This document shows, in pieces, positions 12,001 to 45,815 of a stretch of DNA of 64,000 nt; within the stretch, counting starts at the first letter, position 1; each line of letters opens with the position of its first letter. A program made the position numbers and the translations under genes. The notes under the pieces are model-generated. The model had not been told where the DNA came from. It did not search any database and was given only the letters and a program-made list of their open reading frames with translations. Source of the DNA: Candidatus Taenariivivens baikalensis (GTDB lineage Bacteria; Omnitrophota; Omnitrophia; Omnitrophales; Aquincolibacteriaceae); assembly GCA_009691445.1 (NCBI GenBank), contig SICL01000007.1, positions 6,916 through 70,915 of the forward strand, in the 5' to 3' direction.

Positions 12001-15000
12001 TGTCTTCCAACGAATGCCCTGATTGCTGCCCACTTGAAAACGAGCATGGGCTTCGGGATAAACCACTTGAAGCCGCCCATGGATCGTGAATGCATCGTTA
12101 GAAATATCCATCGTTTTGAAATCACGAACATCGGAGATACGGACCTTCGCAGTTTTTGAGATATGATCCGGAATCGTCCAGTGGTAAGTTCCTTCATTCT
12201 TCATTGAATCCACAATCGGATAAATCTGATTTTTGAACTCGTCCGTAGAGTAATCCAGTTTGACTTCGAACATACTTCCCAAAGCCTTCCAGATAATGTC
12301 CTGTTTCGAACCCACCTCCCAGCGTTCCCTGTAATTGGGAGTCGAAACCTCAAACGCGCCCATAATCCGAAAAGTAATATCCGAGGTATCATAAATGCGC
12401 GGATCCAGAGCATCCATCACCCGGATTTTAATCATCGGATCAATCGTATCCGGCACCGTCCACTTATAGGAACCCGCATTTTTAAAATCTTTAACGATGG
12501 AATGAAAATCTTTTTTGAAATCATCCCGGGAATACTCGAGATTAACTGCGGCAACTTCTCCGGCAGAATTCCATTGAAGTGTTTGCGGACTTCCGACCAG
12601 CCATCCTTCACCACCGTTTGGACTCGTGACCGTAAGTTTATTGGGAAGATATTCAAGCTCCAGCGATTCCAGTTCGACCGGCTCAACTCCTGAAGGGGAA
12701 TGGAGAAAGGCTTTGAAATAAAAACTCCCGATGCCGACTTCTGAGGGAAACAGATAAATGCGCTGGGCCACTTGCGCGGCCGTATTGGATTCCGCAATGG
12801 AAGCGGCCACAACCCAGTGACGTCCATTGTGATAATACCAATTGGAACCGTCCCGAGAGATCTGATACGTGATCATCCCTTTATGGTGGGTTCCAAGCCG
12901 CTCGCGAAAGTCAGAAATCGCCGCAAACGAAACGCTCTTATTGTTAATGATTGCCGGCTTGTCGACGGAATAGTCATTGCCTTGCACGGAAACGGACTTG
13001 ATGGTAGGACCGACGGCAGCATCCTCTGTTTTTAGAAGAGCGAGATACTGAAAATAACGGCCCGGAGCAACTTCCAACTTTTGCGGAGAAATTCCGCGGT
13101 ACGCATTTTCCGGATTAGTTTTAAAAAACAGGTTCGCGACTTCATGGTCCGAAAGCGCTTCGGCGGCAATCAGCGCTTCATCGATTCCCCCGTGAAAAAA
13201 ACCTGCGGCTCCACTGCCGTAACGTCCCAGGTAAAGCGCTCCCTTATCATAAAAAATCGGCGAGTGGAAGGAAGCTTTCTTCACAAGGCTTCCATTAATA
13301 TAGAGTCGAATTTCCTTTCCATTCCAGGTTGCCGCCACATAATTCCATCGCCCCACCCCTATTTGGCCATCCTGGTCACTGCTCTCCAAATGATACCCGC
13401 CTTCGTGCCCAAGACGCACTCCAAGACGGTTGCCGGAAAGCAGTTCCAGAGAAAAGGATGAAAAAATCGGAGCGCCTCCTGCGTAATGTTTATCAATAAT
13501 TCGGGAGCTTTCTTTTTCCACTTCCTCGGGACGAATCCAGGCGGAAAGGGTGAAGGCATCGTGAAGATGAAGGCTCTCGGAATCCGCGACTTCGATAAAA
13601 TCACTGGCACCATTCAAATATATCCCGCGGGAAATAACGCCTTCCGAAGATGCGATTCCATGACCGTAGGCAACGCCGTGGTTGGCATACCGCGAATCAT
13701 CGGCCACTTCATTCGAACTTCCCTGCAGATTTTTTTCGTTAAAATGCCACAAGGCTACCGTACTTTCAGAGGGTCTGATTTCTGAAGCTGCGGGTCCTTG
13801 AGGACCGCGCCATTCACTGTTTGTAAAGCTCTCGGATTCTGAGGTGCGAACCAAGAATTTCGTATCCAGTTTCGCGCTGAGGTACTCATCCGTAATCGTC
13901 TTCTTATCTAAGCCGTAATTAAAAAATGCAAATTCATCCACGGCACCTTCAAAAGTATCGGAAGATTTTAAATTGCCGATGATAAGCGGTTCCGCGGCCG
14001 TGGCGCGGACAAACGGCGAAGATCCGGACAGGTCTCCGTCCAGATAAAGAAAAAGACTATGTCCATCGGAAGTCAAAGCCGCATGATGCCACCGACTGTC
14101 AAGAATCGCGACGTCGCTGACAATCTTCCGGGCTCCAGTGCTGACGACGTGAAGCCGTCCGTCCGGCGCGGAGCGGTAAAGAGAAGGGTTCTCATCTCCC
14201 ACACTGAAGATGCGGTCCACCCCTTGAGGTTCTGAACTTTTGAACTGAAACCAGAGGGAAATCGTAAAGGTTGAAAGGGACGGAAAGGTTTTCTGGGAAA
14301 TGATCTTGTCATACCCCTTTTTTGAAAACCAGCGTGCCTGTGAGAAAACGCCAGGCACCGCGTAAGTTCCCATTGCATTCGCAGGAGTTTCATTCATTTC
14401 ATCCTGAAAAAGAGAGCCGCTGGGTTCATCTAAATGATAAAGATGAAGCATTCCCTTCTCTTCTTTCTGGATTTGTTTTCCATATGACTGCAGGGGCTGC
14501 CAGGAAAGCGTCTGCCACGGAGACTGGCTACCGGCATCTTTGACTTTAGAAACATAAATCCCGCTCGGCGGAAAGAGATTCGCATCCGCCGCAATTTCAT
14601 ATTTATTTTTTACGCGTCGGTAAATGGCGACATCATCCAGCACGCCTTGAAACCAGGAACTTCTCGCGCTGTCGGTGCCAATCACCAGATCGGATTTTTC
14701 GCTTATCCGTAATTCACCGCTGTAAGACGCCGAAGAATCCAGAACACCATCGACATAAATAGAAAGCCTTCCCTGACCCCACGTCACCGCAACATGATGC
14801 CATTCATTGGGCATCAGGGCATGCTGTCCCGTAAAATCAGGCGGAGAAAGCAAGGAGCTGGCTGCGTGCATTTTCCCAAGGGGGCCCACCAGAGAAACCG
14901 AGTAATCCGCCTGACCGCCAAAATTGGATACGAGAGGCATCACTTCCCCCTTACCTGGAAGTTTTTCCGGTTTGACCCACATCTCCAGAGTCAGCTGTCC

Positions 15001-16223: not shown

Positions 16224-17270
16224 TTATCGGACTTTTTGTTCTAATTCAAGCGCCAAAACATATCCTTCAACTTTCTTGGCATCCGGAGCCTTTGGATTCA
16301 CGGCGATATATCTCTGATAATGATAAAGCGATTTTTCGCGGTCCTTGAGAAAATCGTCGTAGAGAATGCCAAGATTGTAATGGGTGTCTGGATCATTCGG
16401 CATCAGCTCCAGTGCTTTTTCATACTCAGTGATCGCTTCTTTATACCGTTTATTTTGAAGAAAAACCGTGGCAAGATTGTAATGCATTTGAGCATTTTCT
16501 CTCATCATTTTTTGAGAAATACGACTCGCCCTGGCAAGACCCGGAACCGCATCTTTGAATTTGGCTTTCAAAATCTCAATCTGTTCGCGGTATTCCTTAT
16601 TTTCTTTGATCAAATTCTTCTGACGTATTTCCAGGGTCTGGATGTAAGAGGTTTTCTGCCGCAATTCTTTATTTTCCGCCACAATCTTGTGGAGCTCTTC
16701 TCTGTCCATTTCAAGCGGCGTCATCTGCCGTTTCATTTCCTCAAATTGTTTTTCATACTCGAATACCTTTTGTGCCATTTTTTTATTTTCTTCCTGCAGG
16801 CGGTTCCGATCCTCCAAGACCTGATTGATTTTTTCAGGCGTGTATTCCGTCATGATTTTAGCCAGTGAATCACTCCGGTCTTTTTCTTCCTTCAGCTTCC
16901 GTTCCAGATTTGTTTTCTCTTCCGCGGAAAGTTCCCGATCCTTAGAGCGAGCAGCTTTGATTTTCGCCAACTCTCCGCTCAAGATAGCATTCTCTTTTTT
17001 GAAAGATTCCAGTTCTACCCCTGCGCCACTCGTCAAATTCTTAAGTTGCTCAATTTTAGCCAGCAAATCCGCTTTCTCTTTTTGAAAAAAACGTGCTTGC
17101 TTCAAAATGTTATTGCGATCGGATTTTAGGTCCTCCAATTCTCGGGAAAGTTTTGCATTTTTCTGAGTCAGCTCCTTCACGGTCACCGCAGGATCGGCCT
17201 CAGTTCCAGCAAAACCAAGCGGCATCCATGCGGCCAGAAAGATCATCCATGCCATTCCAATTTTTTTCAT
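16224..17270 (-). CDS. Secreted coiled-coil protein with C-terminal TPR repeats (MshN-like by context)
   Basis: ORF 16224..17291. The likely start is internal MKKIGMAWMIFLAAWMPLGFAG (signal peptide) with GAGG 5 nt upstream. A long heptad-like K/E/L-rich stretch (KELTQKNAKLSRELEDLKSD...) is followed by TPR-like AQMHYNLATVFLQNKRYKEAITEYEKALELMPNDPDTHYNLGILY. The stop lies 14 bp upstream of the giant gene start. Confidence 0.6.
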   Translation of the reverse strand: MKKIGMAWMIFLAAWMPLGFAGTEADPAVTVKELTQKNAKLSRELEDLKSDRNNILKQARFFQKEKADLLAKIEQLKNLTSGAGVELESFKKENAILSGELAKIKAARSKDRELSAEEKTNLERKLKEEKDRSDSLAKIMTEYTPEKINQVLEDRNRLQEENKKMAQKVFEYEKQFEEMKRQMTPLEMDREELHKIVAENKELRQKTSYIQTLEIRQKNLIKENKEYREQIEILKAKFKDAVPGLARASRISQKMMRENAQMHYNLATVFLQNKRYKEAITEYEKALELMPNDPDTHYNLGILYDDFLKDREKSLYHYQRYIAVNPKAPDAKKVEGYVLALELEQKVR

Positions 17271-17316
17271 TTTTTCCTCAGCCTGTCCCACGTAATAACG
17301 AAAGTTAGTTAATTTT

Positions 17317-18930
17317 TTAATACGTTTTAAAGGGTTTTAGAGTCTTATCGGCAATCTGTCGATCGGTAAATGTCATATCACCCGAGACGACATTGGGCGT
17401 CAAAAAAATAACCAGCTCGATTTTTTCAAGCTGCTCGCTTGTATTTCGGAATAAGGCTCCCACAAGAGGAATGTCTCCAAGAATAGGCGTTTTCTTGACG
17501 GTTTTGACTTTCTCATTTTTTCGTAATCCTCCAATAATAATTGTCGTGCCATCTTTCACCATGACTGTTGTTTCAGATAAGGTCGTGTCGACAATGGGAA
17601 TCGCATTTTGAGTCGGCGTGATCAGGGTTCGTGCGACGCTGGAGATTTCCGGTTTTATTTTCATGGTCACGTAACCATCGTCATTAATGATGGGCGTCAC
17701 CTCCAGAGAAATCCCCACATCCACAAATGTCACATTCTCCGCGGTCGTAGACGTTGTTTGTCCGGTGGTGGTCGTCGTTGTCACAAAGGCCTCGCGTGTC
17801 CCGATCATAATACGGGCAGATTGTTTATTAATAACAGCCAAACGCGGACTCGCCAGCACCTTGGTCTGGCCGACCGTGCTCAGATAATCAATCGTGGCAC
17901 TGGTCTCATCCGTTGAGACATTTCCGATTTGTAAGCGTCCATAATTTGTCAGCGTCGGTTTGAAGGTCCCAGTCAAAATGGGCCGGTATTTCGCGACTCG
18001 AAAGGCATTGTCCGTATCTCTGAAAAGTCTTTGCCAGTTGATCCCCATATCAAAATCATCGCTCAAAGTGACTTTAACAATTTTCGCTTCGATCAACACT
18101 TCCCGCGTCTTTTCATCGAGGGCACGGACAATCCTCTCGATTTCATCCATGCGTTTGGGAAGCGCGGAAACCACCAAAGAATTACTGCGTTCATCCGCCT
18201 TGACCGTTCCCAGCTTTAAAGCATCCAACCTTTCTTTCAAACTGACTTCCACTTTTTCCGCCTCTGCGTACCTAAGCTGAAAAATCCGGAGATTCTGACC
18301 TTTCTCCATCTCATAAATAACCTTTTCCATTTCCTGGATTTTTTCCGGGAGATCCATCAAGATAAGTGTGGCTGAATCTTCATCCACGACCACTTTCCCA
18401 ATATCACTTTTGATGGCGCTTAAGACCGTAAAAATCTGATTCGGAACCGCATAACGAAGCTTAAACACTTTGGCGATGCGCAAATCTGAAAACCGTTTTC
18501 CGTATAGTGCCTGAAATTCAGTTTCGCTCATCACGTTATAAATTTCGCCCTGCTTGGCAATGGCAAGATTGTTACTCAGAAGGATGATTTCCAGAACATC
18601 CGCCACGGAAACATCGGTCAAATAAAGCGACACGCGGCCTGCCACGTTTTTTCCGATAACAAGATTAAGACTTCCCTTCATTGCCAGGAATTTTAGCGCT
18701 TCCGAGATTTCAATATTTCTCAGATCAAGCGTCACTCGTTCCTTAAGTCCTTCCGCCTTGGTATCGATCATAATCCGCGGAGGCGCAGTCGAAACCCCTT
18801 CCTGGGCTGAGGACCCGGGATGCTGAGCCATGGAAATTGGTGCCATGATCATCATGACAATTCCGAAAATCATGATGGCCCTGACAGACCGCCTGTCAGA
18901 ATTAAAAAAGCGATGCTTCTTCACCTTCAT
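17317..18930 (-). CDS. Secretin, GspD/MshL type (N0 + two secretin_N domains + secretin C-domain)
   Basis: 537 aa with a signal peptide (..MIFGIVMMIMAPISMAQ). Two secretin_N-like modules are present (VFKLRYAVPNQIFTVLSAIKSDIGKVVVDEDSATLILMDLPEKIQEMEKVI and IFQLRYAEAEKVEVSLKERLDALKLGTVKADERSNSLVVSALPKRMDEIERIV). The C-terminal secretin domain reads VLASPRLAVINKQSARIMIGTREAFV..TTTTTGQ...TVMVKDGTTIIIGGLRKNEKVKTVKKTPILGDIPLVGALFRNTSEQLEKIELVIFLTPNVV. Confidence 0.85.
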   Translation of the reverse strand: MKVKKHRFFNSDRRSVRAIMIFGIVMMIMAPISMAQHPGSSAQEGVSTAPPRIMIDTKAEGLKERVTLDLRNIEISEALKFLAMKGSLNLVIGKNVAGRVSLYLTDVSVADVLEIILLSNNLAIAKQGEIYNVMSETEFQALYGKRFSDLRIAKVFKLRYAVPNQIFTVLSAIKSDIGKVVVDEDSATLILMDLPEKIQEMEKVIYEMEKGQNLRIFQLRYAEAEKVEVSLKERLDALKLGTVKADERSNSLVVSALPKRMDEIERIVRALDEKTREVLIEAKIVKVTLSDDFDMGINWQRLFRDTDNAFRVAKYRPILTGTFKPTLTNYGRLQIGNVSTDETSATIDYLSTVGQTKVLASPRLAVINKQSARIMIGTREAFVTTTTTTGQTTSTTAENVTFVDVGISLEVTPIINDDGYVTMKIKPEISSVARTLITPTQNAIPIVDTTLSETTVMVKDGTTIIIGGLRKNEKVKTVKKTPILGDIPLVGALFRNTSEQLEKIELVIFLTPNVVSGDMTFTDRQIADKTLKPFKTY

Positions 18931-19621
18931 AAGTAACCGTCACCTTTTCTTTTTCAATGTTCTGAACTTTCAGGCCATTAATTTCCTGGCCCCGCTTTAA
19001 AAAATAAGTTTTCCCGCTCTCAGTTTGTTCGATCATGGCAAGCGGGCTCGTGTTTGTCCAAGAGATTCCCACCAATTTGATGCTCTGCATGATCTTGGCC
19101 ATCTTGTCACTTTTAGGCTGAGAAACAGAAAGGACTTCCGGCTTGGCTTCTTCTTTCTCCGCCAGCTTCCCTGTCATCAGCATAAAAGGATTTCTCCTCG
19201 CCATCATGTCATGATAGTACTTCACATCATGCTGGGCTTTTTCGCCCTTATCTCCTTCCCGCGAAGAAAAAGCCGAATCATTCAAGCTGACTTGGGACAG
19301 GAATTTTTTGGGATCCCCTTTTAAAATGGAAAGATCCAACGCAAGATAAATCCCGCACACCAAAACACCCGCAATCAAAAAAGCATTGACGCCCTTAATG
19401 TAAGCAAAAGGATTGGCATCTTCAACCGCGACTGAACTGCGCTTGGGTGCTTGATTCCTGGAAACGGAAAAAAGTTTTCCCCAAGGAATTCCCGGAAGAG
19501 AAAATTTTCGTTTCCCCGTTTTCGGAGTTCCCTTACCCTTCTGAGGGTTCTTGGAATCCAAACCCGGATTCTCAATCAATTTAAGTAATTGCTCTTCTGG
19601 AGTGGGTTTTGGCTGTACCAT
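18902..19621 (-). CDS. Bitopic inner-membrane protein with periplasmic beta-domain, GspC/PilP-like (putative secretin partner)
   Basis: 239 aa. It has a basic/proline-rich cytoplasmic N-region, a single TM helix (AFLIAGVLVCGIYLALDLSIL) and a C-terminal domain (IKLVGISWTNTSPLAMIEQTESGKTYFLKRGQEINGLKVQNIEKEKVTVTYEGEEASLF) that resembles the GspC HR / PilP secretin-binding fold. Its stop overlaps the secretin start by 29 nt. Confidence 0.4.
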   Translation of the reverse strand: MVQPKPTPEEQLLKLIENPGLDSKNPQKGKGTPKTGKRKFSLPGIPWGKLFSVSRNQAPKRSSVAVEDANPFAYIKGVNAFLIAGVLVCGIYLALDLSILKGDPKKFLSQVSLNDSAFSSREGDKGEKAQHDVKYYHDMMARRNPFMLMTGKLAEKEEAKPEVLSVSQPKSDKMAKIMQSIKLVGISWTNTSPLAMIEQTESGKTYFLKRGQEINGLKVQNIEKEKVTVTYEGEEASLF

Positions 19622-20445
19622 CCGGCACGCACATCCTGGTTCACAAGCTCTTCAATGTTGTTTGAGGTAATCACTTGCTGATTTTTCATTACCAGGCTCT
19701 TGAGAGCCCGGTGGCATAACATCGCAGTTTTCCGGGGATAACCACGGGCGGCCCGGTGAATTTCACGCACAGCCTCTTCCAGGAAAAGACGATAGCGTGA
19801 CTTAAAACCGGCCTGTCGCAAACGAAAATCAATCATTTCCCGGGTCTCTTCCTGATCCAGAGGCTCCAGAACGCACTTCAAACTTACGCGGTCGAGAAGA
19901 TTATGCATCTCTACCAACGTGGGCATGAGTTCCACCTGGGAAAGTAAAACGACCTGAATCAGCTTATAGGCATTTGTTTCGTAATTGAGCAGCATCCTTA
20001 AAATTTCAAGGCAGGACCGGTTCATTTTCTGGGCCTCATCGATAATGAGCACCACGGTCTGTTTTTCCTGGACTCCTTTTTGAAACAGGTAGCGTTCCAA
20101 GGCTTCTTTGTAATCCCAAAGAGTGGACTGAGGAACACTCAAATCAATACCGAAAGTCCGGATTAGATCTTGAAGAAATACCTGTTCATTAGGATAAGAA
20201 GGATCCAGAATTAAATGAAAAATAAATCCTTCCCGGTCACGAAGCATCTGAATCAATTTTCGCCCCAGGGTTGTCTTGCCGGTACCTACCTCCCCCAAAA
20301 CCACACTCAAACCTCTCTTGAGTCTTAGATCGATCATCAGATTAGCGAGAACCGCTTTGTGATTTCTCGACTCATAAAAATAGAGGGGGTCCGGACTCGT
20401 TGAAAAAGGCTCATCGTCCAAGCCAAGCACCCGGTAGTAACTCAT
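19576..20445 (-). CDS. ExeA/GspA/MshM-like AAA ATPase (AAA_22)
   Basis: The likely start is MSYYRVLGLDDEPFSTSPDPLYFYESRNHKAVLANLMIDLRLKRGLSVVLGEVGTGKTTLGRKL with a perfect AAGGAG 7 nt upstream (rc of 20446-20460). It has a Walker A GEVGTGKTT and Walker B VVLIIDEAQ. There is no C-terminal peptidoglycan-binding extension. Confidence 0.8.
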   Translation of the reverse strand: MSYYRVLGLDDEPFSTSPDPLYFYESRNHKAVLANLMIDLRLKRGLSVVLGEVGTGKTTLGRKLIQMLRDREGFIFHLILDPSYPNEQVFLQDLIRTFGIDLSVPQSTLWDYKEALERYLFQKGVQEKQTVVLIIDEAQKMNRSCLEILRMLLNYETNAYKLIQVVLLSQVELMPTLVEMHNLLDRVSLKCVLEPLDQEETREMIDFRLRQAGFKSRYRLFLEEAVREIHRAARGYPRKTAMLCHRALKSLVMKNQQVITSNNIEELVNQDVRAGWYSQNPLQKSNYLN

Positions 20446-20587
20446 CCGAATTCTCCTTAAAAATCGTCTCAAAACACAGCTTTTACGTCTTTGTAAAAAT
20501 CGGCAGTCTGTCAGGAGAACTTGAGACAAGTTACTGAAAAAAAAGCACTTACAACATTTTTGGGGGGAAGGAAAATAGGGAAGCTGG

Positions 20588-22399
20588 TTAGATTTTGATC
20601 ACGACGTAGACTAAAATCAGAATAACGGTCAGGATCAATAAAATAGAAATAACATGCTGCATAAATTCAGAGCTTACTTTCTTTTTTTCTGATTCGGCAG
20701 TACTGGCAGGTTGCGTCGAAGCAAAACGGCTTGCCGTGTAAGATCCTTCCGCCTGAGTTTCTTTTTTAACAGGTCCTGAAACATGGATAAATTGAGATTG
20801 GCTTAAATCCACCAAAGAAGTCCGCCTCAGTTTTTTCCCGTTTTCATCGTATTCGATCTGGATCACGGGACTTAAGGGATATTGACGGTTTTGCCTCACA
20901 ACCCGGCCAACTTGTTTATTGCTCAACTCCACATAACTCATCACAGGGTAAAGTCCCACGCGAACCATCAAGGACTTAAGCACAAGACGATCATAAATGC
21001 CACGCCCTGTGTCAATCAGCTGTTTCATGGCGTCATTGACTTCCAGTGGTTTTTTTCGATAGGGCCGCTCATGAATCAAGGCCTCGAAACTGTCGATCAC
21101 GTGAATGATTTTGGCAAAGATGTGAATATCCTGATCCATGAGTCCCTTGGGATATCCTTTCCCGTTACCGATCTCATGGTGATGCATAATAGCCTCCAGA
21201 GCCGTTGTGCTCAAAATATCTTTCAGCATCTCGGCTCCCTTTAAAGGATGATCGAGAATCTCCTTTTCCAGTTGAGGCGTAAGCTTTTTAGGATAATTCA
21301 AGTCTTCACGCACTTTCACAAGCCCCATATCATGCAGAAAGGCTGCCAGCCCAAGGTCCATCATTTCTTCTCGGGAAAAGGAAAATTCAAGGGCAAGAAT
21401 CAGTGCCAGAACCGCCGTATTGACCGCATGATAAGTAAAATGGTTATCTACCGGATAAGGTTCCAGGGCAAGGCGCATAGATTCAAGATCCCGCTTCTGA
21501 ATTAAATCCAGAAACGAATTTAAAATTTCTTTCAGCGGATCCAGGTCCGGAATCCTTCCTTGAGCGGACTGTGCAAAAAGAGGCTCTCCGATAGCTACCA
21601 ATTGATCCCGAAGACTTATTGCCAATGCCTCAGCCTGGGGATCTGCCTGAAGTGCAACTTCAGGGATTGTTTCATCTATTTTTTCAATGGGTTTTAATCC
21701 CGAGAAGGATGGAGGAGGGATCTTTGAGGGCAACTCATTCCGCGCGGGAGGCGCTGGAGAAGAAACGTCCCTTAAAAGCACGGCGACTTCTTCCCTGGAT
21801 TCATCCTTCTTAATCGGAGGCGGAGGCGTCACGAGCTGATCCGAAGGTTGGCTTAACGCCCGCAGGGAGTTTCTTGCGTCGTTCAACTCTTTTTCCCGGA
21901 GATCCAAAAGTTTCTGGAATCCTTGCAAGGTCTGTTTATCTTTCAGGCCTTCAATCTCAAGCGTTTCTTTTATCTTGGCTCTTTCCGCTTCAAAGGCCGC
22001 TGATAAAACTGACTCCATTTGTTTTTTGTATTCGGAAAGCTCCCTGGATCTCTCCTGACGAAGTTTTTCCTGTTCCTGATCAGCTGCCTGTTTCATAAGC
22101 TGTAAACTTTTTTCCTGATCAGCTGATTTCTTTTTCTCTGATTCAAGCCCCTGATGAAAACGGGATTCGAGTTCCTGTCGGGTCTTATCCATTTCCCGCT
22201 GAAACTGCGCCTCCAATTCCTGACGGATTCGCTTCTCAATCAATGTCGCTTCCACCACAAGGGAAAAAGACTCGTCTTGCGATGAACGGAGTTTGGGCTT
22301 GTCTTCTTGTTTTCCAATGATCTTTTCTTCGGGAATAATCTTGGGAACCGGGGGGCTTACATCGACTTTGGGAGCTGCTAAAAAATCAGAAAATCTCAT
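20588..22399 (-). CDS. HD-GYP domain phosphodiesterase-like protein with N-terminal coiled-coil/Pro-rich region and C-terminal TM anchor
   Basis: The HD motif is FLHDMGLVKV and the GYP motif is HHHEIGNGKGYPKGL (N in place of the usual D of HHExxDGxGYP). The extreme C-terminus ISILLILTVILILVYVVIKI is a single predicted TM. The likely start is MRFSDFLAAPK with AAGGA 6 nt upstream. The gene sits between two ExeA-like ATPase genes. Confidence 0.75.
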   Translation of the reverse strand: MRFSDFLAAPKVDVSPPVPKIIPEEKIIGKQEDKPKLRSSQDESFSLVVEATLIEKRIRQELEAQFQREMDKTRQELESRFHQGLESEKKKSADQEKSLQLMKQAADQEQEKLRQERSRELSEYKKQMESVLSAAFEAERAKIKETLEIEGLKDKQTLQGFQKLLDLREKELNDARNSLRALSQPSDQLVTPPPPIKKDESREEVAVLLRDVSSPAPPARNELPSKIPPPSFSGLKPIEKIDETIPEVALQADPQAEALAISLRDQLVAIGEPLFAQSAQGRIPDLDPLKEILNSFLDLIQKRDLESMRLALEPYPVDNHFTYHAVNTAVLALILALEFSFSREEMMDLGLAAFLHDMGLVKVREDLNYPKKLTPQLEKEILDHPLKGAEMLKDILSTTALEAIMHHHEIGNGKGYPKGLMDQDIHIFAKIIHVIDSFEALIHERPYRKKPLEVNDAMKQLIDTGRGIYDRLVLKSLMVRVGLYPVMSYVELSNKQVGRVVRQNRQYPLSPVIQIEYDENGKKLRRTSLVDLSQSQFIHVSGPVKKETQAEGSYTASRFASTQPASTAESEKKKVSSEFMQHVISILLILTVILILVYVVIKI

Positions 22400-22409: not shown

Positions 22410-23216
22410 TTAAACCGTTTGAGGATCCATAAGCACCTCATTGATAATTTGGGTCGTAATCACCGAAGCCTTCATCCCAAATCCCGTTAAAAGCGCCAAG
22501 TCACAAACCTGATTAATACGCCGGGGAAGTCCTCCCGTAGATTCGTGAATCGTCTTGAAGGAATCTTCGGAAAAAATAGCACGGCTTACTCCCGCCACTT
22601 TCACCCGGTGGAGAATATATTTTTGAGTCTCATCCAGCTTTAGCCCTTTCAAATGAAACCGCACGGCAACCCTTTGATCAAAGGGTTTAAGGTTGGAAAT
22701 TTTTTCCCGGAGTTCCGGCTGTCCCGCCAGAATCAACGTCAGAAGAAATTTATCCCTTTTTTGAAAATTAAGCAGCAATCTTAGTTCCTCAAAAATAGCC
22801 CGGTCCTCAATCAAATGCGCTTCATCCACAATCACAACCACGTGACGGCCTTCGGCATAGTTATCATTAAGAATTTCAGTAAGGCGATGCAGAAGATCAG
22901 TTTTTTGATCTGAAAGATGGTCATGGACTCCCAATTGATAAACGATTTCCTTGAGAAGCTCCACACTGCTTAGCTGGGGATTGAAAATAAAGGCCGTTGT
23001 GTATTTATCACTCTTCAAGACATCAAGGAGGGCTTGAGCGATAAGAGTTTTCCCGGAACCGAAAATACCGGTGAGGACGGCGCATCCCAAGTGAGACTCA
23101 ACCACGTATTTAAGACGCGTCAACGCCTCTTCGTGCTGCTCCGAATAGCACAAAAAACGCGGATCACACGTATTCTGAAACGGTTTTTCTTTGAGACCCC
23201 AGTATTCAAGATACAT
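22410..23216 (-). CDS. ExeA/GspA/MshM-like AAA ATPase, second copy
   Basis: N-terminus MYLEYWGLKEKPFQNTCDPRFLCYSEQHEEALTRLKYVVESHLGCAVLTGIFGSGKTLIAQAL. Walker B is VVVIVDEAH. 268 aa, ATPase domain only. Confidence 0.8.
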   Translation of the reverse strand: MYLEYWGLKEKPFQNTCDPRFLCYSEQHEEALTRLKYVVESHLGCAVLTGIFGSGKTLIAQALLDVLKSDKYTTAFIFNPQLSSVELLKEIVYQLGVHDHLSDQKTDLLHRLTEILNDNYAEGRHVVVIVDEAHLIEDRAIFEELRLLLNFQKRDKFLLTLILAGQPELREKISNLKPFDQRVAVRFHLKGLKLDETQKYILHRVKVAGVSRAIFSEDSFKTIHESTGGLPRRINQVCDLALLTGFGMKASVITTQIINEVLMDPQTV

Positions 23217-23275
23217 AATGTTTAAGTATTATCAGCCTCTAAGAACGATTGTCAATCCCTTCATCCAACAAAACC

Positions 23276-23351: not shown

Positions 23352-24419
23352 TTAATTGAAATCATCCGGATTTTTTTGCTGTTTATTACGAATCGCAAAC
23401 TCCATCAAAATGACAATTAAAAAAGCAATCGTAACAAATTGAACACATAACATGATCGCCTCAATTTTTAGCACATAACGCATCGCCACGGCCCCCATCC
23501 CCAACGCCAGCATCACAAAATAAGTGAAAAAGAGCGCTTGCCTTTGTGACATCCCGAGGGCCAAAAGCCGGTGGGAAAAATGATCCTTGGCGCTGAAAGT
23601 AACAATCTGGCGGATGCCTTTGGTCATTTTGTGAAACTTCCGACGGACCACCACGTACATAAGATCAAAAACCGGAAGCCCCAAGATAAAAACCGGCACC
23701 GCAATGGCTTTGAAAGGATTCGTCGACCAGGCCCCCATCACACTGATCGCGGCCAAACTATATCCCAAAAAGAAACTCCCCGCGTCTCCCATAAAAATAG
23801 AGGCTGGGGGAAAATTGTAAAAAAGAAACCCGATACAGCTTCCCATCAGGGCCACGGAAAGAGCGCCCCAGCTCCATTGTCCATTTTGAACTGCGACATA
23901 CGCATAAGCGAGTGACGCGAAAAATGTCAGGCCCGTGGCAAGCCCGTCCATATGATCGATCGCATTAAAAGCGCTGGTAACACCTACAATCCAGAACAGC
24001 GTCAAAACAAAGTTGATCCAGAAAAATCCGGGAACCAGATTTAGAAGCACCCCTTTATGCGCCAGGAAAATGGTAATACTAAAAAGGACTAACAGTTTTA
24101 AGGCGGCCGGCACCGAACGCAGATCATCCAGAATTCCAACAATCAGAGCGCAGGTTGCCCCCAAAATAAGGCCCTTTTGCTGATGTGTCAGAGATCCCGT
24201 GAGGATAAGACTGAATAAAAATCCAAAAAAAATCCCCACTCCGCCGAGACGGGGAGTGGGCTTGCTGTGAATCTTGATGTTGGAAGGGAAATCCACGGCC
24301 CCGGCCTTAATGGCAAGCCACCGGATGAACGGCGTTAGCACCGAAGTAATCACCACCGCAATAAAAAAAATCTTAACATAAAGCTCCTTCCAATGAAAAG
24401 GGTCCACTGAGGAAGTCAT
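23352..24419 (-). CDS. Polyprenol-phosphate N-acetylhexosamine-1-phosphate transferase, WecA/MraY family (GT4)
   Basis: A multi-TM protein with the family-diagnostic motif AFNAIDHMDGLATG, plus DDLRSV and a basic cytoplasmic loop VVRRKFHKMTKG. Confidence 0.75.
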   Translation of the reverse strand: MTSSVDPFHWKELYVKIFFIAVVITSVLTPFIRWLAIKAGAVDFPSNIKIHSKPTPRLGGVGIFFGFLFSLILTGSLTHQQKGLILGATCALIVGILDDLRSVPAALKLLVLFSITIFLAHKGVLLNLVPGFFWINFVLTLFWIVGVTSAFNAIDHMDGLATGLTFFASLAYAYVAVQNGQWSWGALSVALMGSCIGFLFYNFPPASIFMGDAGSFFLGYSLAAISVMGAWSTNPFKAIAVPVFILGLPVFDLMYVVVRRKFHKMTKGIRQIVTFSAKDHFSHRLLALGMSQRQALFFTYFVMLALGMGAVAMRYVLKIEAIMLCVQFVTIAFLIVILMEFAIRNKQQKNPDDFN

Positions 24420-25125
24420 AAATTCACCTTCTTCCTGCCGAGAAGGATATCGAGACTTTCTCCCCCGTAATTGAAAAGCAAATCGATAGCAGACAGGTTT
24501 GGAACAAACTCTCCGAACTGCTGGTGATAAACGGGATGATCAAATTCCTGGTAAAGAGAGCGGATCTTCCGCGCGGAAAATTTCGTTTCATCCGCGTAAT
24601 CTTTCCCGTGTTTTCCATGAAGATATTGATCCGCGCCTGTCTTCTCACACATATCCAGAATGAGTTCGTCCCCTTTGCCTGAGGCGCCGATTTCCGAAGC
24701 CTTTTTGACAGGTCGGTCAATCCCAAAAGACTTCAGCAGATAAAGAATAAAATGGCAGCTCAAATCACAAAAATTTTCCCAAGAACGTTTCATGTACATC
24801 TCTTCAAAAAAATCCGCGTATTTATAAAAATAGGGCGTCTTTCCGTAATTCACAAGAAGACTCTTCCAATGCTTACGGCCCCAGGGAAGCTCAGGATTAA
24901 TCAAAGTCTCCATAATTTTTTGCTCAAACTTGCCTTTAACCAAAACAGGCACTGAAAGCCATTGGGGACCGGTTGCGGTCTTGATGCGGTTACGACTCAC
25001 CCAACCAAACGGTCCTCGCTTCACATACTGGACATTGTCAACGATGACGAAGAGATCCGAATGATAAACCTTGTGAAAAAAACCCAAGTAGGGGAGATAG
25101 TTAGGCTGATGTCCGGTGAGGATCA
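24416..25125 (-). CDS. WbqC-like family protein (polysaccharide biosynthesis)
   Basis: The family start motif is MILTGHQPNYLPYLGFFHKV. The longer ORF-track N-terminus (MCHCVIAIAASPPRLGTRNDKPNG...) is a read-through translation of repeat R2 and is rejected. Confidence 0.65.
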
Positions 25126-25213
25126 TAGTTTTATTCGACCAAGTATCACTGTTTTGTCGGTTGAGATTGCCGCGTCGTCCTGAGGGACTCCTCGCCATGA
25201 CACCGTTTGGTTT

Positions 25214-25268
25214 GTCATTGCGAGTCCCGAGCCTTGGCGGAGACGCGGCAATCGCAATGACACAATGA
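25214..25268. repeat. Nested palindromic intergenic repeat, short copy R2 (GTCATTGCGAGTCCCGAGCCTTGGCGGAGACGCGGCAATCGCAATGAC) followed by ACAATGAC duplication
   Basis: Read directly from the sequence. It shares the GGCGGAGACGCGGCAATC box with copy R3b. Confidence 0.75.
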
Positions 25269-25295
25269 CACAATGAACCCGCCTATTTTCATATT

Positions 25296-26054
25296 TTAAA
25301 CCACTTGCCGGTAAAGCATATAGGCTTCACACGCTTTGCGTCCGACTTCGCGTCCCCTGGCACAGGCTAAATCCTCCACACTTTCGAGACTGCAAGGATC
25401 CCGTGAATCCCGTTTTTGCGAAGCATAAGCCTGTACCGCTTTGAGCTTAAGATCAAGATAAACAGAAATATCTACGTAAAAATTAGGATGAAATCCGCGG
25501 TCCGGAGTATTCCAGGTAAGCGTCGGGCTGTCATAGACAAGCACCACATCGGGACTGTGCTTCAGCCCTCCCGCATGAATGCGCAGCGCCGTAAAGCAGG
25601 CGTCAAAAACGGCACGGTGATCCTGATTGTAGGAAGGCGCAGGAATCATCACAATATCAGGTTTGATCCGGTCCAAAGAAAGGCGGCTTTTACTTTCAAG
25701 CTGTGCGATTAACTCAAACTGCGGAACAGCATCCAGCTTCATATGTTTTTTGTGATCCACATAAATCACATCGTGATCTTTCCATTTAAGAAGGGCGGCT
25801 ACTTTCTCGATTTCCTGTAAACGCTCATCCCCTTTGACGACTCCCCGTTTTTCATAAAACTTCAGATCGCTCACGGAAAAAAAGATGACATACACTTGAG
25901 CGCCAAGATCCTGGGCCTTGGCCAAAGTCCCCGCGCATCCGAACACTTCATCGTCCGGATGGGGAGACACGAGGAGAACTCGTTTTCCTTTCCAGAACTG
26001 AGTTTCGATTTCCAAAGACGGCACGGATTTACGGCGAGATTCTTTTTTCATCAT
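25296..26054 (-). CDS. PIG-L/LmbE family N-acetylglucosaminyl deacetylase
   Basis: Has the RVLLVSPHPDDEVFGCAGTL motif (HPDDE zinc site) and is ~250 aa. Confidence 0.75.
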   Translation of the reverse strand: MMKKESRRKSVPSLEIETQFWKGKRVLLVSPHPDDEVFGCAGTLAKAQDLGAQVYVIFFSVSDLKFYEKRGVVKGDERLQEIEKVAALLKWKDHDVIYVDHKKHMKLDAVPQFELIAQLESKSRLSLDRIKPDIVMIPAPSYNQDHRAVFDACFTALRIHAGGLKHSPDVVLVYDSPTLTWNTPDRGFHPNFYVDISVYLDLKLKAVQAYASQKRDSRDPCSLESVEDLACARGREVGRKACEAYMLYRQVV

Positions 26055-26058: not shown

Positions 26059-27936
26059 TCAAGAATGGGGCGAGCTATTTGCCTTGATCATCGCTAAAAA
26101 CTTTTTTGCATTTTCATGCTTTGCATCAATATCCAAAGCAGTTTTCAAGGACCTCATCGCCTGCTCCATCTTACCCGTCTGCATATACAGCAAACCGATA
26201 AAGGCGTGCGTGTCCGCATCTTTCCATTGAAGATTCAAGGACGAATTAAATTCATCCAGGGCCTCGGCATATCTTTTTTGATTGAGATACGTAATCCCGA
26301 TGTTCCGATGCAGCGTTACGGCCAAATCATCGCGCGGCGCATAGCGAATCCCCTCTTTAGCCGCCTGGACCGCTTCATCATTCTTTCCCAGCCCCGCATA
26401 AGCCTGAGCAAGAAAGGCATAAAGGTACGGATCATCTTTCCTGTATCGTAAACCCTCCCGGATTTCTTTAATCGCCGCCTCATGCTTTCCAAGACGTAAA
26501 TAGACCTGAGCGAGATTAGGATGCAGCTCCGGAACCTTGGGATCCAGCTCTCTGGATTTCTCAAGCTCCCTCTCGGCATCTTCATAACGGTTCAAATTAA
26601 TAAAGGCCGCGCCCAAATTCAGGCGGATAGCTGACTCCGAGATTTCATTCATCATCGTCGATCCATCGCCATTCCCAGAAGAGGTCGCGGGCACGGGATT
26701 CATTTTTTTTCGTAAGGCCTTTTCAAGACATTCCACGGCCTTAGGATACTGTTTACTTTTAAGATAAGCGACCCCGAGATTGCTTAAGGTCGTCATATCT
26801 TCCGGATCTTTTGCCACCAGCTTTTCCAGCTCAGTCACGCCGCGATCCAAGTCATTTCTTTCGAGATAAGCGAGCGCCAAATTCCCTTGAAGAATACGGT
26901 TATCCGAATCAGCACTGAGCCCCTTCAACCAGTTAAAAATCGCAAGATCTGTATTTCCCTGCTGATAATACGCCACTCCAAGATAATTCAGGGTATCCGC
27001 CAGCATTTTCTTTTGGCTCGGAAGCACAAAATGAGCAATGGCACTGCCAAGTTCACGCACGGCAAGCGCATAACGTCCGGCTTGGTAATAAATATTTCCA
27101 AGCTCGAAATGAATATGCGGATTTTCATAGCGGTACTGCAGCGCTTCTTCCCAAATAGAAATCGCTTTTGCTTCCTGTTTGCGGGCTTGATAAAATTTTC
27201 CCAGTTGATAATAAAAATCACTGTGAGGATTTTGGCGGATTTTTTTTTCGTAAATATCAACAACCTTATCCACGCTTTCTCCAGATAAAGATTCCATCCC
27301 TTTTTGAAAATCCACACCTTGAGTGGCCGTCACAATCTGCTCATTGGCTTCATCCAGCATCAGAACTGGCTGAGCCGGAACCGACGAGTGCATGATGGCA
27401 TCCGGATCCGTGATATGGATGCCACCAAAAAGATGGGTGATCTCATGAGCCAGCACCACCTGTTCGCGCGTACTTCCCAAGGCTGCAAAAGGATCCCGGA
27501 TCACGACAAACCCGCGAAAATATTGGGCGGAGCCTACCGTATCCACGTCCGCCACTTTATCATCCCGAAAGGGCTGGCTCATTTTATGAAACCCAATCAC
27601 AATCTGATCCTTACCAAGCGGAATAAAGCTACGCAACTCTTCCATCAAAAGATCGGTCTCACGGGTTTCGTCCTGAGGTTCCCAATTAATGTATTGGACC
27701 ACTTTGAAGTGAACGTTGAAATGCGGTTCAAAAATCTGATTCACAAAGATAATGCGGTCGCGGATATCTTTTTCCCACTCGACAGCGCTCTGGAATGTCG
27801 GCGAAGAAGCAACCTTAACTTCGATTTCCCGGTGCGGAAGTTCGGAGGCAAAGACTGTATAGGGGAAAAAGAAAAGCGAAAATAACAGAAGTCTAAACGC
27901 AATTTCATAAGTAGCTGTAAATTCTTTATCGGTCAT
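26059..27936 (-). CDS. Secreted metzincin-type zinc metalloprotease domain fused to C-terminal TPR repeats
   Basis: The likely start is MTDKEFTATYEIAFRLLLFSLFFFPYTVFAS (signal peptide). It carries the metzincin signature HEITHLFGGIH (HExxHxxGxxH) with a downstream Met-turn-like AIMHSS, followed by more than 8 TPR-like repeats (YYQLGKFYQARKQEAKAISIWEEAL..., NPHIHFELGNIYYQAGRYALA...). Confidence 0.7.
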   Translation of the reverse strand: MTDKEFTATYEIAFRLLLFSLFFFPYTVFASELPHREIEVKVASSPTFQSAVEWEKDIRDRIIFVNQIFEPHFNVHFKVVQYINWEPQDETRETDLLMEELRSFIPLGKDQIVIGFHKMSQPFRDDKVADVDTVGSAQYFRGFVVIRDPFAALGSTREQVVLAHEITHLFGGIHITDPDAIMHSSVPAQPVLMLDEANEQIVTATQGVDFQKGMESLSGESVDKVVDIYEKKIRQNPHSDFYYQLGKFYQARKQEAKAISIWEEALQYRYENPHIHFELGNIYYQAGRYALAVRELGSAIAHFVLPSQKKMLADTLNYLGVAYYQQGNTDLAIFNWLKGLSADSDNRILQGNLALAYLERNDLDRGVTELEKLVAKDPEDMTTLSNLGVAYLKSKQYPKAVECLEKALRKKMNPVPATSSGNGDGSTMMNEISESAIRLNLGAAFINLNRYEDAERELEKSRELDPKVPELHPNLAQVYLRLGKHEAAIKEIREGLRYRKDDPYLYAFLAQAYAGLGKNDEAVQAAKEGIRYAPRDDLAVTLHRNIGITYLNQKRYAEALDEFNSSLNLQWKDADTHAFIGLLYMQTGKMEQAMRSLKTALDIDAKHENAKKFLAMIKANSSPHS

Positions 27937-28176
27937 TGTGAGGAGTCCCGCAGGACGACGCGGCAATCCCAGGGCACAACCCGAGATTGCTTCGCTTTGC
28001 TCGCAATGACCAACGGAAAGACATCCTGTAATAAGACGGGGGTTTTGTCATTGCGAGTCCCGCACTTGGGCGGAGACGCGGCAATCTCTGGGCGAACAAC
28101 CCGAGATTGTCCGCCACAAAATCTTCGGACGGATCCGCCGTGCTTTCTGGCGGACTTCGCTGCGGCTCGCAATGGC
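27932..28176. repeat. Composite locus with two (plus a partial third) copies of the nested palindromic repeat (R3a 27932-28010; R3b 28047-~28176)
   Basis: R3a: GTCATTGTGAGGAGTCCCGCAGGACGACGCGGCAATCCCAGGGCACAACCCGAGATTGCTTCGCTTTGCTCGCAATGAC. Its left arm contains the ATG (rc CAT 27934-36) of the metzincin-TPR gene. R3b: GTCATTGCGAGTCCCGCACTTGGGCGGAGACGCGGCAATCTCTGGGCGAACAACCCGAGATTGTCCGCC ... GCTCGCAATGGC. Confidence 0.75.
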
Positions 28177-28209
28177 GTGCGTGAGTGGAGGTTTATGATG
28201 AAACCGCTT

Positions 28210-29739
28210 CTAAGTCGTTGCAAGACCTTGAGTCCCCTGAGTTTCATTGCGAAGCAATTGCTGAAGATAACTCAGTTGATTGGGGGTGCTGTTCACGGGA
28301 AGTGTATTCAAGTGCTGGGTTAAAGCCTGCACATCCGTATAACTATACTGGCCCAGCAGTTTCAGATAGGCTGCTACCACCTTGGGATCTTCCGGCTCTC
28401 CCAGGGTTTCAGCCATTGCCCTCGCACGTTCGAAATCCGTATCACCAAATTGATCACGAAAACGGCTCCAAGTATCAAGACGCTCTGAAAGTGTGGGGAT
28501 CTCGTTGATTAGGTAGCGGTATTCCAGAATATCCGCCCCGACATAACCGCTTCCCTGCCGCAAATTAAAAGGAAAAATCTCAACCAGATTCTGGCGTCTC
28601 AATTCATCCACTGCCAGGCGGAATTGTTCCCGGGGTATCGGGAAATCCTTTTCCACATTGCGCTCAGAACCCACCCAGACCGGTGATTCCCCACTCATCT
28701 GAAGACGGTAGCGAATGACGAAATAAGCATAGATGGCACGCGCTGAAAAGTCTTTGACGTAATTTTCATGAAAGAGAGTAAGTGACACCTGAACATTAGG
28801 AGTCAGCACCACCGGCAATTTAAGCGTCAGTTCAGGATGGGACGGATCTTCCCCTTGGATCGTCAGAAGTTTATATTGATTTGAAAGCCGCCGAAGCACT
28901 TCATCCACCTGATGATCCAGAGCCATGCGATCAATGGTTCGGTCGGATGGAATACGGTGGCTCAGTTCCTCCAGAGAAACCTTAAGCGTGTTTTGATGCG
29001 CTTCATAAAACTTTTCCAGAAGAAAAAGATAAATCTTGATGGCATCCCCGTCATCACTGCTGACCATCCCTGGAAAATACTTCACATCCTGTAAAAGAAA
29101 AACCGGCACTGCGAGTTCACCCACAGTCCGGGATTCTTTTTCCACCTTAAGATCCCAGAGCGGAAAAAATTCCATACGTGTTCTCTTCTTCTGCGCCAGC
29201 GATAGGGAATAACTCAGGGATGCGGAACCCAGCCCCTCCGTCAAATTTTCATGTGACCACGCCGGGCCTCCTTCCAGGACCATCGCTTCGTCCACCACAG
29301 CCAATTGATCGGATAACCGGTATTTGGGATTCACAAAATGAATTTGCATGCCTTCTTTTTCCAGATAGGCCAGCTTGTCTTCTCGTAAAAAAAGGGATTG
29401 ATCTGAGGCTTCGTCAGTAAAGGTATTCAAAAACATCCTGACCCTGACTCCTCGTTTGACCGCACTGACAAGATCCTCCAGTAAAATATTCACCGCATCC
29501 TTTTTTTCGTCGCGGATAACGATTTGAGTCAGACTGATATCAATTTGCTTGCGGGAAAAATTAAAAAGCTCGCGCAATTTGCTCATATACTGACGGTCGC
29601 TGACATCAATCACGCCGGATCCAGAATGAATTTTTTCCGCACTTTGAGAAGAAATCGGGACAAGAATAGGCGCTGCGCTCAAGGCCGGGATTTCAAAAAT
29701 CAGGGCCAGGAGAATGCCCCCGAGACTGATTCGATTCAT
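28210..29739 (-). CDS. Hypothetical secreted protein (~509 aa), no recognised domain
   Basis: The likely start is MNRISLGGILLALIFEIPALSAAP (signal peptide) with GGAGG 6 nt upstream; the ORF-track GTG start is 7 codons earlier. Repeats R3 and R4 flank it on either side. Confidence 0.5.
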   Translation of the reverse strand: MNRISLGGILLALIFEIPALSAAPILVPISSQSAEKIHSGSGVIDVSDRQYMSKLRELFNFSRKQIDISLTQIVIRDEKKDAVNILLEDLVSAVKRGVRVRMFLNTFTDEASDQSLFLREDKLAYLEKEGMQIHFVNPKYRLSDQLAVVDEAMVLEGGPAWSHENLTEGLGSASLSYSLSLAQKKRTRMEFFPLWDLKVEKESRTVGELAVPVFLLQDVKYFPGMVSSDDGDAIKIYLFLLEKFYEAHQNTLKVSLEELSHRIPSDRTIDRMALDHQVDEVLRRLSNQYKLLTIQGEDPSHPELTLKLPVVLTPNVQVSLTLFHENYVKDFSARAIYAYFVIRYRLQMSGESPVWVGSERNVEKDFPIPREQFRLAVDELRRQNLVEIFPFNLRQGSGYVGADILEYRYLINEIPTLSERLDTWSRFRDQFGDTDFERARAMAETLGEPEDPKVVAAYLKLLGQYSYTDVQALTQHLNTLPVNSTPNQLSYLQQLLRNETQGTQGLATT

Positions 29740-29760
29740 TGTAAACCTCCGCTCACCCAC

Positions 29761-29839: not shown

Positions 29840-29881
29840 ACACGTCTACGTGGTTCACCGAAGCCTTTCGATTCATTTTCA

Positions 29882-30862: not shown

Positions 30863-30896
30863 ATCCCCTCAACCTTATATTAAAAAAGTTCTGCTG

Positions 30897-32382: not shown

Positions 32383-32393
32383 TATTCGGCATT

Positions 32394-39964: not shown

Positions 39965-39967
39965 ACA

Positions 39968-40831: not shown

Positions 40832-40835
40832 ATTT

Positions 40836-45813: not shown

Positions 45814-45815
45814 GT

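Follow-up and report, generated by a model that had tools for sequence, protein, structure and literature searches.

A tail-anchored HD-GYP protein with an intact metal site, conserved beside ExeA-like ATPases in Omnitrophota

The 64,000-nucleotide stretch of DNA from Candidatus Taenariivivens baikalensis considered here (GenBank assembly GCA_009691445.1, contig SICL01000007.1, positions 6,916 to 70,915; called the window below) carries on its minus strand a gene for a 603-residue HD-GYP protein (20588-22399, stop codon included), which lies between two genes for P-loop ATPases of the AAA_22 type that resemble ExeA (GspA). HD-GYP proteins are phosphodiesterases of cyclic di-GMP (c-di-GMP). The favoured reading, which we hold with slightly more confidence than doubt, is that this one is an active binuclear phosphodiesterase, possibly of the trigger type, that would be tethered to the membrane and serve as the dedicated partner of the ATPase pair. 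The enzyme domain itself is ordinary, and the novelty lies in the wiring, in that a tail-anchored, coiled-coil HD-GYP protein always stands beside ExeA-like ATPases. The reading builds on the anatomy of the protein, on intact metal- and nucleotide-binding residues, on the tight coupling of its gene to that of the first ATPase (AAA1), on synteny, and on the pairing of a sister clade with AAA_22 ATPases, including one Rosetta-stone fusion.

The family was delimited with a profile of residues 250-548, which gave 461 matches at E <= 1e-30 in a search of 1.84 billion representative proteins. The full tail-anchored architecture is seen in about 27 of the representatives clustered at 50% identity, and the open reading frame (ORF) is for that reason not a chance one. 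Residue tallies were taken from an hmmalign alignment of 27 family representatives (26 of them full-length) and the nearest 123 relatives, and metal ligands were mapped onto the enzyme PmGH from the printed alignment, with an offset of +6 in the chain numbering. All seven ligands of a binuclear site are present in the window protein, namely H324 (H189 in PmGH), the HD pair H356 and D357 (H221 and D222), H384 (H250), the HH pair H407 and H408 (H276 and H277), and D436 (D305). The tyrosine of GYP is Y416 (Y285 in PmGH), and the RxY[K/R] specificity motif reads R445-P-Y447-R448, with R445 and R448 at the positions of R314 and K317. In PmGH numbering, H250, H276, H277, D305, the GYP triplet and the RxxR pair are found in 27/27 family representatives, H189 and D222 in 26/26, and the Tyr of RxY[K/R] in 26/27. 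The sole ligand that changes is H221, which is kept in 24/26, and the complete set of seven is intact in 24 of the 26 full-length representatives. Among the nearest 123 relatives, in contrast, 89 have at least one metal-ligand change, and by this comparison the catalytic site is under purifying selection that is specific to the tail-anchored family.

The position of PmGH E185, the ligand of a third metal, is occupied by His in the window protein and by Tyr in most orthologues, which places the family in the binuclear subclass. Binuclear HD-GYP enzymes as a rule stop at pGpG, and the window enzyme would be expected to yield mainly pGpG from c-di-GMP. From the intact metal site, the GYP tyrosine and the RxYR motif, the sequence thus predicts what is probably a working phosphodiesterase and not a degenerate binder. 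The initial annotation had argued for a binder, on the ground that the motif HHHEIGNGKGYP (residues 406-417; 21149-21184, minus strand) has N in place of a conserved D. The string is present as given, but it is not a variant: the family motif HHExh[D/N]GxGYP, which has been used as a criterion for true HD-GYP domains (Galperin & Chou, bioRxiv 10.1101/2021.11.05.467447), allows either residue, and the window sequence HHEIGNGKGYP fits it. Among the 27 family representatives, 20 have N at the disputed position, 4 have D, 2 have T and 1 has S; of the 123 relatives, 79 have D and 34 have N. The asparagine is a normal alternative, and the argument from it to a protein that binds without hydrolysing fails. 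The ligand loss that alignment to characterised HD-GYPs might have brought out is likewise absent, since on the PmGH map the window protein has lost none.

The partnership with the ATPases is most directly seen in gene order. In the window and eight further Omnitrophota loci (L001, L003, L055 and L084-L088), the order AAA1 – HD-GYP – AAA2 is kept in 9/9 cases, and orthologous secretin modules thus carry the HD-GYP gene between ExeA-like genes just as the window does. A gene for a GspC-like protein and a secretin gene follow in 8/8 loci with enough flanking sequence, and a giant gene comes next wherever the contig extends. The initial annotation had spoken of the HD-GYP gene as inserted between the ATPase genes, a description that is wrong because the arrangement is ancestral. 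The stop codon of AAA1 and the start of the HD-GYP gene are separated by only 1-20 nt in 8 loci, a spacing that suggests translational coupling.

This evidence bears on the simplest alternative, that the protein is an ordinary cellular phosphodiesterase whose gene is a chance neighbour in the operon without functional connection to it. HD-GYP genes are common, and there is a second one in the window. Nevertheless, the order is conserved in all nine loci despite a sequence identity of only 31-44% among the HD-GYP orthologues overall (40-59% in the domain; the neighbouring proteins are 66-80% identical), and the gene spacing is that of a coupled pair. Pairing with AAA_22 also persists in the very different loci of the sister clade, with one fusion, but an AAA_22 neighbour was found in 0/79 unrelated HD-GYP loci from other phyla. 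These control loci came from a GTDB genome scan with the family alignment, in which nearly all of the matches were generic HD-GYPs and one, L055, was a true orthologue. The chance-neighbour explanation is therefore strongly disfavoured and, in our estimation, very improbable.

The sister clade indicates which of the neighbours is the real partner. Homologues of AAA1 at about 62% identity occur in polysaccharide loci that have no secretin, and there two AAA_22 genes and a short HD-GYP gene are kept (L089 and L090). The short HD-GYP proteins, of about 360 residues, share the N-terminal peptide and the C-terminal beta domain of the tail-anchored family (both described below) and are without its long helix and its tail. 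In L089 an AAA_22::HD-GYP fusion of 590 residues is encoded at 8200-9972; no further fusion was seen among 150 representative matches, leaving L089 as the single case. Downstream of the fusion in this secretin-free polysaccharide locus lie a separate AAA_22 gene, a separate short HD-GYP gene and a 55-codon ORF with two transmembrane segments. Directed look-ups placed sister-clade HD-GYP genes within 2.5 kb of an AAA_22 gene in 5/5 cases (L089, L090 and, picked blind, L171, L172 and L173), of which L171 lies on a 1.82-Mb Omnitrophota chromosome, L172 adjoins a Wza-like exporter and L173 is near a gene for a protein of 2,768 or more residues. In both L172 and L173, PqqD, radical-SAM and ScmC genes stand beside the AAA_22/HD-GYP pair. 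A metagenome scan added L094, L096 and L097 as loci with the same pairing, and the named relatives of the sister clade are all Omnitrophota.

Since sister HD-GYPs pair with AAA_22 in loci without a secretin, and are once fused to it, the conserved partner of the HD-GYP protein is, as far as gene neighbourhoods tell, the AAA_22 ATPase and not the secretin. The suggestion of the initial annotation that c-di-GMP is wired into the export module is thus supported by the 9/9 linkage and by the sister pairing and fusion, but its emphasis on the secretin has to be moved to the ATPase. L094 has the order AAA_22 – HD-GYP – separate coiled-coil protein – Wza – Wzc – Wzy, in which the coiled-coil protein is a stand-alone product of 335 residues encoded after the HD-GYP gene (6866-7873). 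Such an arrangement raises the possibility that the tail-anchored family gained its N-terminal helix through a gene fusion. A further peculiarity of the sister clade (P0196-P0318) is that the first His of HHE is Glu, giving EHE, in 45/123 representatives, which suggests a large and partly non-canonical HD-GYP clade in Omnitrophota.

Several observations weigh against an active enzyme that works with the ATPases upon a secretin. In the pocket, the KPG motif is altered, to Y369-P370-K371 in the window protein (with Y in 24/26 representatives), and the Lys of HDxGK is replaced by Leu throughout the family (L360 in the window protein) and by Met or Leu in the sister clade; the KPG motif and this Lys are both kept in PmGH, V-cGAP3, DvhD and the second HD-GYP protein of the window. 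A single metal ligand is lost in 2/26 full-length representatives and in 3/21 orthologues of a second sample. Among the orthologues, such single losses are at H221 in P0012 and P0016/P0184 and at H277 in P0014. Ligand loss is common in the AAA_22-linked sister clade, which means that partnership with the ATPase does not require catalysis. As for the rest of the machine, no match to GspE or GspF was obtained among ORFs of at least 450 aa in the 64-kb window, nor does the window hold a pseudopilin gene. Finally, the connection from the ATPases to the secretin is drawn by analogy with ExeA/ExeB, yet the ATPases of the window are without the transmembrane and peptidoglycan-binding parts of ExeA.

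The family-wide changes from KPG to YPK and from Lys to Leu in HDxGK, the single ligand losses just listed, and the altered ligands of 89/123 AAA_22-linked relatives would also suit a scaffold or receptor that binds c-di-GMP, whether or not metal is present, and that relays its occupancy to the AAA_22 ATPases with no meaningful turnover. There is a precedent in DvhD of Desulfovibrio vulgaris (PDB 9RBZ/9RC0), in which HD is replaced by SQ and HH by MN, and which does not hydrolyse c-di-GMP but is a receptor that controls two giant adhesins (PMC13090378); LapD, which likewise governs giant adhesins, is also analogous. Like DvhD, which is recovered both by sequence and by Foldseek (E about 1e-7), the window protein is an apparent inner-membrane HD-GYP that is genetically tied to giant surface adhesins. 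The two differ in that DvhD bears transmembrane, dCache and PAS domains at its N-terminus and targets a periplasmic protease (PMC13090378), whereas the window protein has its ligands complete and is accompanied by AAA_22 ATPases and a secretin. Receptors of the DvhD type are without HD and HH alike, but all seven ligands are retained by the window protein and 24/26 full-length representatives, a family that is markedly more canonical than its relatives, and the N of the GYP motif is an ordinary alternative. A receptor without turnover is accordingly possible but rather unlikely.

The reshaped pocket also allows for an active HD-GYP hydrolase with a preference for a nucleotide other than c-di-GMP, for instance 3'3'-cGAMP or pGpG, the reshaping being due to YPK, HDxGL and the beta domain. 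KPG contacts the second base, and KPG variation has been tied to adenine tolerance. The beta domain peculiar to this clade packs against the catalytic domain and is modelled with confidence only in the whole protein, and the lysine of Gly-Lys-Gly-Tyr-Pro is a family trait, Lys or Arg being present within G[K/R]GYP in 24/27 family representatives as opposed to 14/123 relatives. However, the chief determinant of c-di-GMP specificity, RxYR, is kept (R/R in 27/27, Y in 26/27), where cGAMP-specific enzymes have RxxQ or RxxN, and the KPG of PmGH touches the second guanine through main-chain atoms. The genomic setting points to c-di-GMP as well, in that the window has a GGDEF-like gene and a second HD-GYP gene, and PilZ genes lie by the giant genes of Omnitrophota (West-Roberts et al.), all of which makes c-di-GMP signalling plausible. 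A different substrate is accordingly improbable, and c-di-GMP hydrolysis remains the favoured activity. In a separate comparison, K582 of DvhD, a phosphate contact, was considered as the counterpart of the HDxGK Lys and rejected; a recount from R650, Y652 and Y621 puts it in the helix before the His equivalent to H250.

The longest form of the ORF runs from 22441 to 20588, and the Met at 22399 (MRFSDF...), from which 18 orthologues align, is the right start by this criterion and by an AAGGA Shine-Dalgarno sequence 7 nt upstream, as the initial annotation had it; the TAA stop of AAA1 is 10 nt upstream. Assignment to the HD-GYP group follows from Pfam (HD_5, E=2.6e-23 over residues 319-471; HD, 6e-13), from the nearest solved relatives by sequence (PmGH, V-cGAP3, DvhD and PA4781), and from an AlphaFold2 model of the full protein built on the orthologue alignment (mean predicted local distance difference test score, pLDDT, 77), which Foldseek matched with a probability of 1.00 to 3TM8 (Bd1817), 9RBZ (DvhD), 4R8Z (PA4781) and 4MCW (PmGH). 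The protein begins with a peptide, MRFSDFLA (residues 1-8; 22376-22399, minus strand), that is kept in the alignment of the 18 orthologues (A1) and in most family representatives, with the family consensus M[RK]xS[DE][IF][LIV]K and the sister-clade form M(V)RxSDIxKK. A single long, coiled-coil-like helix of 138 residues follows (45-182; 21854-22267, minus strand; pLDDT about 87-93), its length differing between orthologues in A1, and then a weakly conserved, Pro-rich and disordered linker (183-250; 21650-21853, minus strand; pLDDT below 50). The HD-GYP catalytic domain spans residues 254-480 (20960-21640, minus strand), with a pLDDT mostly of 83-97 that falls to about 72-81 near residues 361-380. 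A coiled-coil and Pro-rich N-terminal region had been recognised before and is borne out, but it was taken to be some 350 residues long, whereas the non-catalytic part comprises about 250, because residues 254-312 are helices already within the HD-GYP fold.

Beyond the catalytic domain lies a predicted five-strand beta domain (residues 489-544; 20768-20935, minus strand; GLYPV..VELSNKQ..RV.RQNR.FPLSP....E.D...DLS), which the initial annotation had passed over along with the KPG and HDxGK changes. The block that contains it is strongly conserved, with a mean column identity of 68% for residues 466-550 (alignment A2) as against 42% for the whole protein (A1), and the domain occurs in the sister clade of short HD-GYPs as well. 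It has no match in Pfam and no sequence match in the PDB. Its pLDDT is 82-91 in the full-length model but only 49 when it is modelled in isolation. A PilZ reading, prompted by the pattern RxxRQNR ... DLSxxQ, was set aside as unsupported, in that there was no Pfam match at E<=10 and no PDB sequence match, and the DLSxxQ string is without the Gly of the PilZ motifs (RxxxR and [D/N]xSxxG). A second disordered linker in the model leads to the C-terminal transmembrane tail anchor ISILLILTVILILVYVVIKI (20591-20689, minus strand), which was reported previously and is modelled as a helix of residues 571-602, the protein ending in ..KI at 603. With lysines before the tail and only KI after it, the entire protein is expected on the cytoplasmic side. 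Of the 27 family representatives, 26 have a hydrophobic tail, most of them ending in ..KI, compared with 0/123 nearest relatives, and by this tally tail anchoring is confined to the secretin-linked family.

The HD-GYP gene is the second in a minus-strand series that runs AAA1 – HD-GYP – AAA2 – GspC-like – secretin – TPR – giant Laminin_G protein. As the initial annotation stated, both flanking genes code for AAA_22/ExeA-like ATPases. AAA1 (22410-23216, minus strand) has 268 residues (Pfam AAA_22, 2e-22; TIGR03015, 9e-65) and orthologues that are 69-78% identical in nine loci; its sequence is the same as that of a Candidatus Omnitrophica protein at NCBI, from a metagenome-assembled genome. AAA2 (19576-20445, minus strand) has 289 residues (AAA_22, 3e-19; TIGR03015, 2e-52), and its start was placed at M29 of the ORF from tblastn alignments, behind an AAGGAG Shine-Dalgarno sequence. 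The two are paralogues of about 28% identity with intact Walker A and B motifs (GSGKT/VDEAH and GTGKT/IDEAQ) and no membrane segment. Both fall below the TIGR03015 cut-off (218.7 and 178.2 bits against 324.5), and JGI labels their homologues "general secretion pathway protein A / ExeA". A spacer of 142 bp (20446-20587; about 100-300 bp in orthologues) separates the stop codon of the HD-GYP gene from the start of AAA2 and is far longer than the AAA1/HD-GYP junction; a run of C followed by a run of T lies within it.

The AAA2 gene overlaps at its 3' end, by 46 nt, a gene for a bitopic GspC-like protein of 239 residues (18902-19621, minus strand; NCBIfam GspC_delta, 2.6e-10, and a weak Pfam T2SSC match, both below cut-off), which has a hydrophobic segment at about residues 80-100 and is kept in 8 loci. 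The secretin (17317-18930, minus strand) has a Secretin domain (Pfam, 6e-46), two Secretin_N domains and an STN domain. It resembles PilQ, GspD and MshL, all below their equivalog cut-offs, and is 69-80% identical in orthologous loci. A protein with a signal peptide, coiled coil and TPR repeats, identified by domain scans, is encoded at 16224-17291 (minus strand), and the giant gene occupies 1-16209 (minus strand). The giant protein, cut by the window edge at more than 5,400 residues, begins with what looks like a signal peptide and carries four Laminin_G_3 domains along with Kre9_KNH Ig-like repeats; giant genes at the matching position in orthologous loci encode 5,402 to 6,941 residues.

Upstream of AAA1, a sigma-70-like site (TTGACA-16-GATAAT, 11/12; 23228-23255, minus strand) is a consensus match only, and counts of such sites over the whole region are no higher than in shuffled controls. 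Farther upstream, the cluster continues with a conserved section (26059-32400, minus strand) that comprises two small TIGR04073 proteins, exported proteins of 234 and 326 residues, a PLD-like protein and a TPR protein of 635 residues, in an order matched in L001 and L084-L088. The tandem TIGR04073 (exosortase system-associated) genes, at 31589-32002 and 31999-32400 on the minus strand, encode small exported proteins and stand first in the cluster of every orthologous locus, but no exosortase gene turned up in those window ORFs that were scanned. A block of GT4 (WecA-like), WbqC and PIG-L genes (23352-26054, minus strand) separates the TPR gene from AAA1 and is a variable insert: the window, L001 and L085 have it, and L084, L086, L087 and L088 do not.

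Farther off in the window, a HAMP/membrane protein (44446-45813, plus strand) has a GGDEF-like domain that reads GGDDY instead of GG[D/E]EF and may be a non-canonical or inactive cyclase. The second HD-GYP protein is fully canonical (HDVGK, KPA, HHEKFDGSGYP), and its gene adjoins one for a GAF/HisKA/HATPase sensor kinase (61002-62360 and 62789-63985, both on the minus strand). A separate polysaccharide export cluster (38060-48051), with a Wzc-like tyrosine kinase, an EpsL-like outer-membrane protein, a TPR protein and a Wzy_C ligase, has no adjoining AAA_22/HD-GYP pair.

Set against known systems, the protein shares with canonical HD-GYPs (PmGH, 4MCW, and the binuclear PA4781, 4R8Z, and Bd1817, 3TM8) the fold, the HD, HHE, [D/N]GxGYP and RxY[K/R] motifs and the seven binuclear ligands. 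It differs from them in the want of an E185-type ligand, in YPK for KPG and Leu for the HDxGK Lys, and in the added N-terminal long helix, C-terminal beta domain and tail anchor. The domains that accompany known HD-GYPs are usually N-terminal sensor, REC or membrane domains. None of the architectures in the review by Galperin & Chou (bioRxiv 10.1101/2021.11.05.467447), whose membrane domains are N-terminal, combines such a helix, beta domain and tail anchor. The locus resembles those of ExeA/ExeB (GspA/GspB) and of MshM of MSHA pili in having an AAA_22 P-loop ATPase encoded beside a secretin and a bitopic protein of the inner membrane. Unlike ExeA, however, the window ATPases are two paralogues of 268 and 289 residues with no further Pfam domain beyond the ATPase, and no HD-GYP partner for ExeA or MshM is described in the literature searched. 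The secretin has the domains of the GspD type found in type II secretion systems, but scores below the GspD equivalog cut-off. There is also a likeness to the ATPase system of XrtA/PEP-CTERM loci, in that TIGR03015 is the best NCBIfam match for both ATPases and the cluster contains two TIGR04073 proteins and a PrsT-like TPR protein, but both ATPases are below the TIGR03015 cut-off and exosortase is missing from the window ORFs that were scanned.

In concept, the arrangement is like the control of type IV pili and type II secretion by MshE, FimX and PilZ, where c-di-GMP is wired straight into an envelope-spanning export machine. In those systems MshEN, degenerate EAL/GGDEF or PilZ receptors act on hexameric ATPases of the GspE/PilB type, whereas here an apparently active HD-GYP accompanies ExeA-type ATPases and no GspE-type ATPase occurs in the window. 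Secretion loci for giant genes in Omnitrophota have been reported to include a gspD-like secretin, a peptidyl-prolyl isomerase of the SurA/Rotamase_2 type and downstream PilZ genes (West-Roberts et al. 2023, bioRxiv 10.1101/2023.11.21.568195). The window comes from the same phylum and likewise has a secretin and a SurA/Rotamase_2-type isomerase near the giant gene, but the published locus lists gspE, gspF and rcpC, which are absent here, and its giant proteins are above 30,000 residues, as compared with a Laminin_G/Ig-repeat protein of more than 5,400 residues in the window and orthologues of about 5,400-6,900. HD-GYP proteins and ExeA-like ATPases are not mentioned in the literature on Omnitrophota giant genes that was searched (including bioRxiv 10.1101/2023.11.21.568195), and the searchable literature contains no description of an HD-GYP paired with ExeA, a secretin, PEP-CTERM or exosortase.

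A model for the phosphodiesterase and its ATPase partners can be put together from these elements. The HD-GYP protein would lie in the cytoplasm, held at the inner membrane by its C-terminal tail anchor, and would form a membrane complex with AAA1 and AAA2. The tail and the GspC-like protein would together hold this complex at the membrane, and the bitopic GspC-like protein would connect it to the secretin, by analogy with ExeA/ExeB and GspC. By binding and hydrolysing c-di-GMP, the HD-GYP protein would control whether the two ATPases drive the secretin to assemble or to open, and the giant Laminin_G adhesin, once exported by Sec, would pass through it to the surface. The enzyme could drain c-di-GMP locally, or it could be a trigger enzyme whose grip on its partners depends on substrate engagement.

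Because the sister-clade pair adjoins Wza/Wzc polysaccharide export genes, the ATPase/HD-GYP module probably feeds c-di-GMP signals into envelope export quite generally in Omnitrophota. A bolder proposal, to which we give rather less than even credence, is that ExeA-like AAA_22 ATPases and this HD-GYP clade, marked by its N-terminal MRxSDI peptide and C-terminal beta domain, constitute an unrecognised, Omnitrophota-wide two-component module for the c-di-GMP-dependent, ATP-driven assembly or gating of outer-membrane export machines. The machines served, put forward just as tentatively, may be a stand-alone secretin for giant adhesins in the present locus and Wza/Wzc polysaccharide exporters in the sister loci.

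The degenerate motif that first drew attention to the protein was the wrong hook, but the ATPase/HD-GYP module is a concrete lead that is open to direct test, even though the organisms are uncultured. ATPases of the ExeA/TIGR03015 type are frequent in polysaccharide and PEP-CTERM loci and are poorly understood. If the coupling is true, it would be a new route for the control of envelope export by c-di-GMP, and it would suggest a function for these ATPases. The bolder proposal would provide a first mechanistic role for the widespread but uncharacterised TIGR03015/ExeA-like "secretion ATPases" outside the classical type II secretion system. Omnitrophota are noted for giant proteins and for a host-attached or predatory lifestyle, and the bolder proposal would also offer a handle on how these ultra-small, host-attached bacteria time the display of their giant surface proteins.

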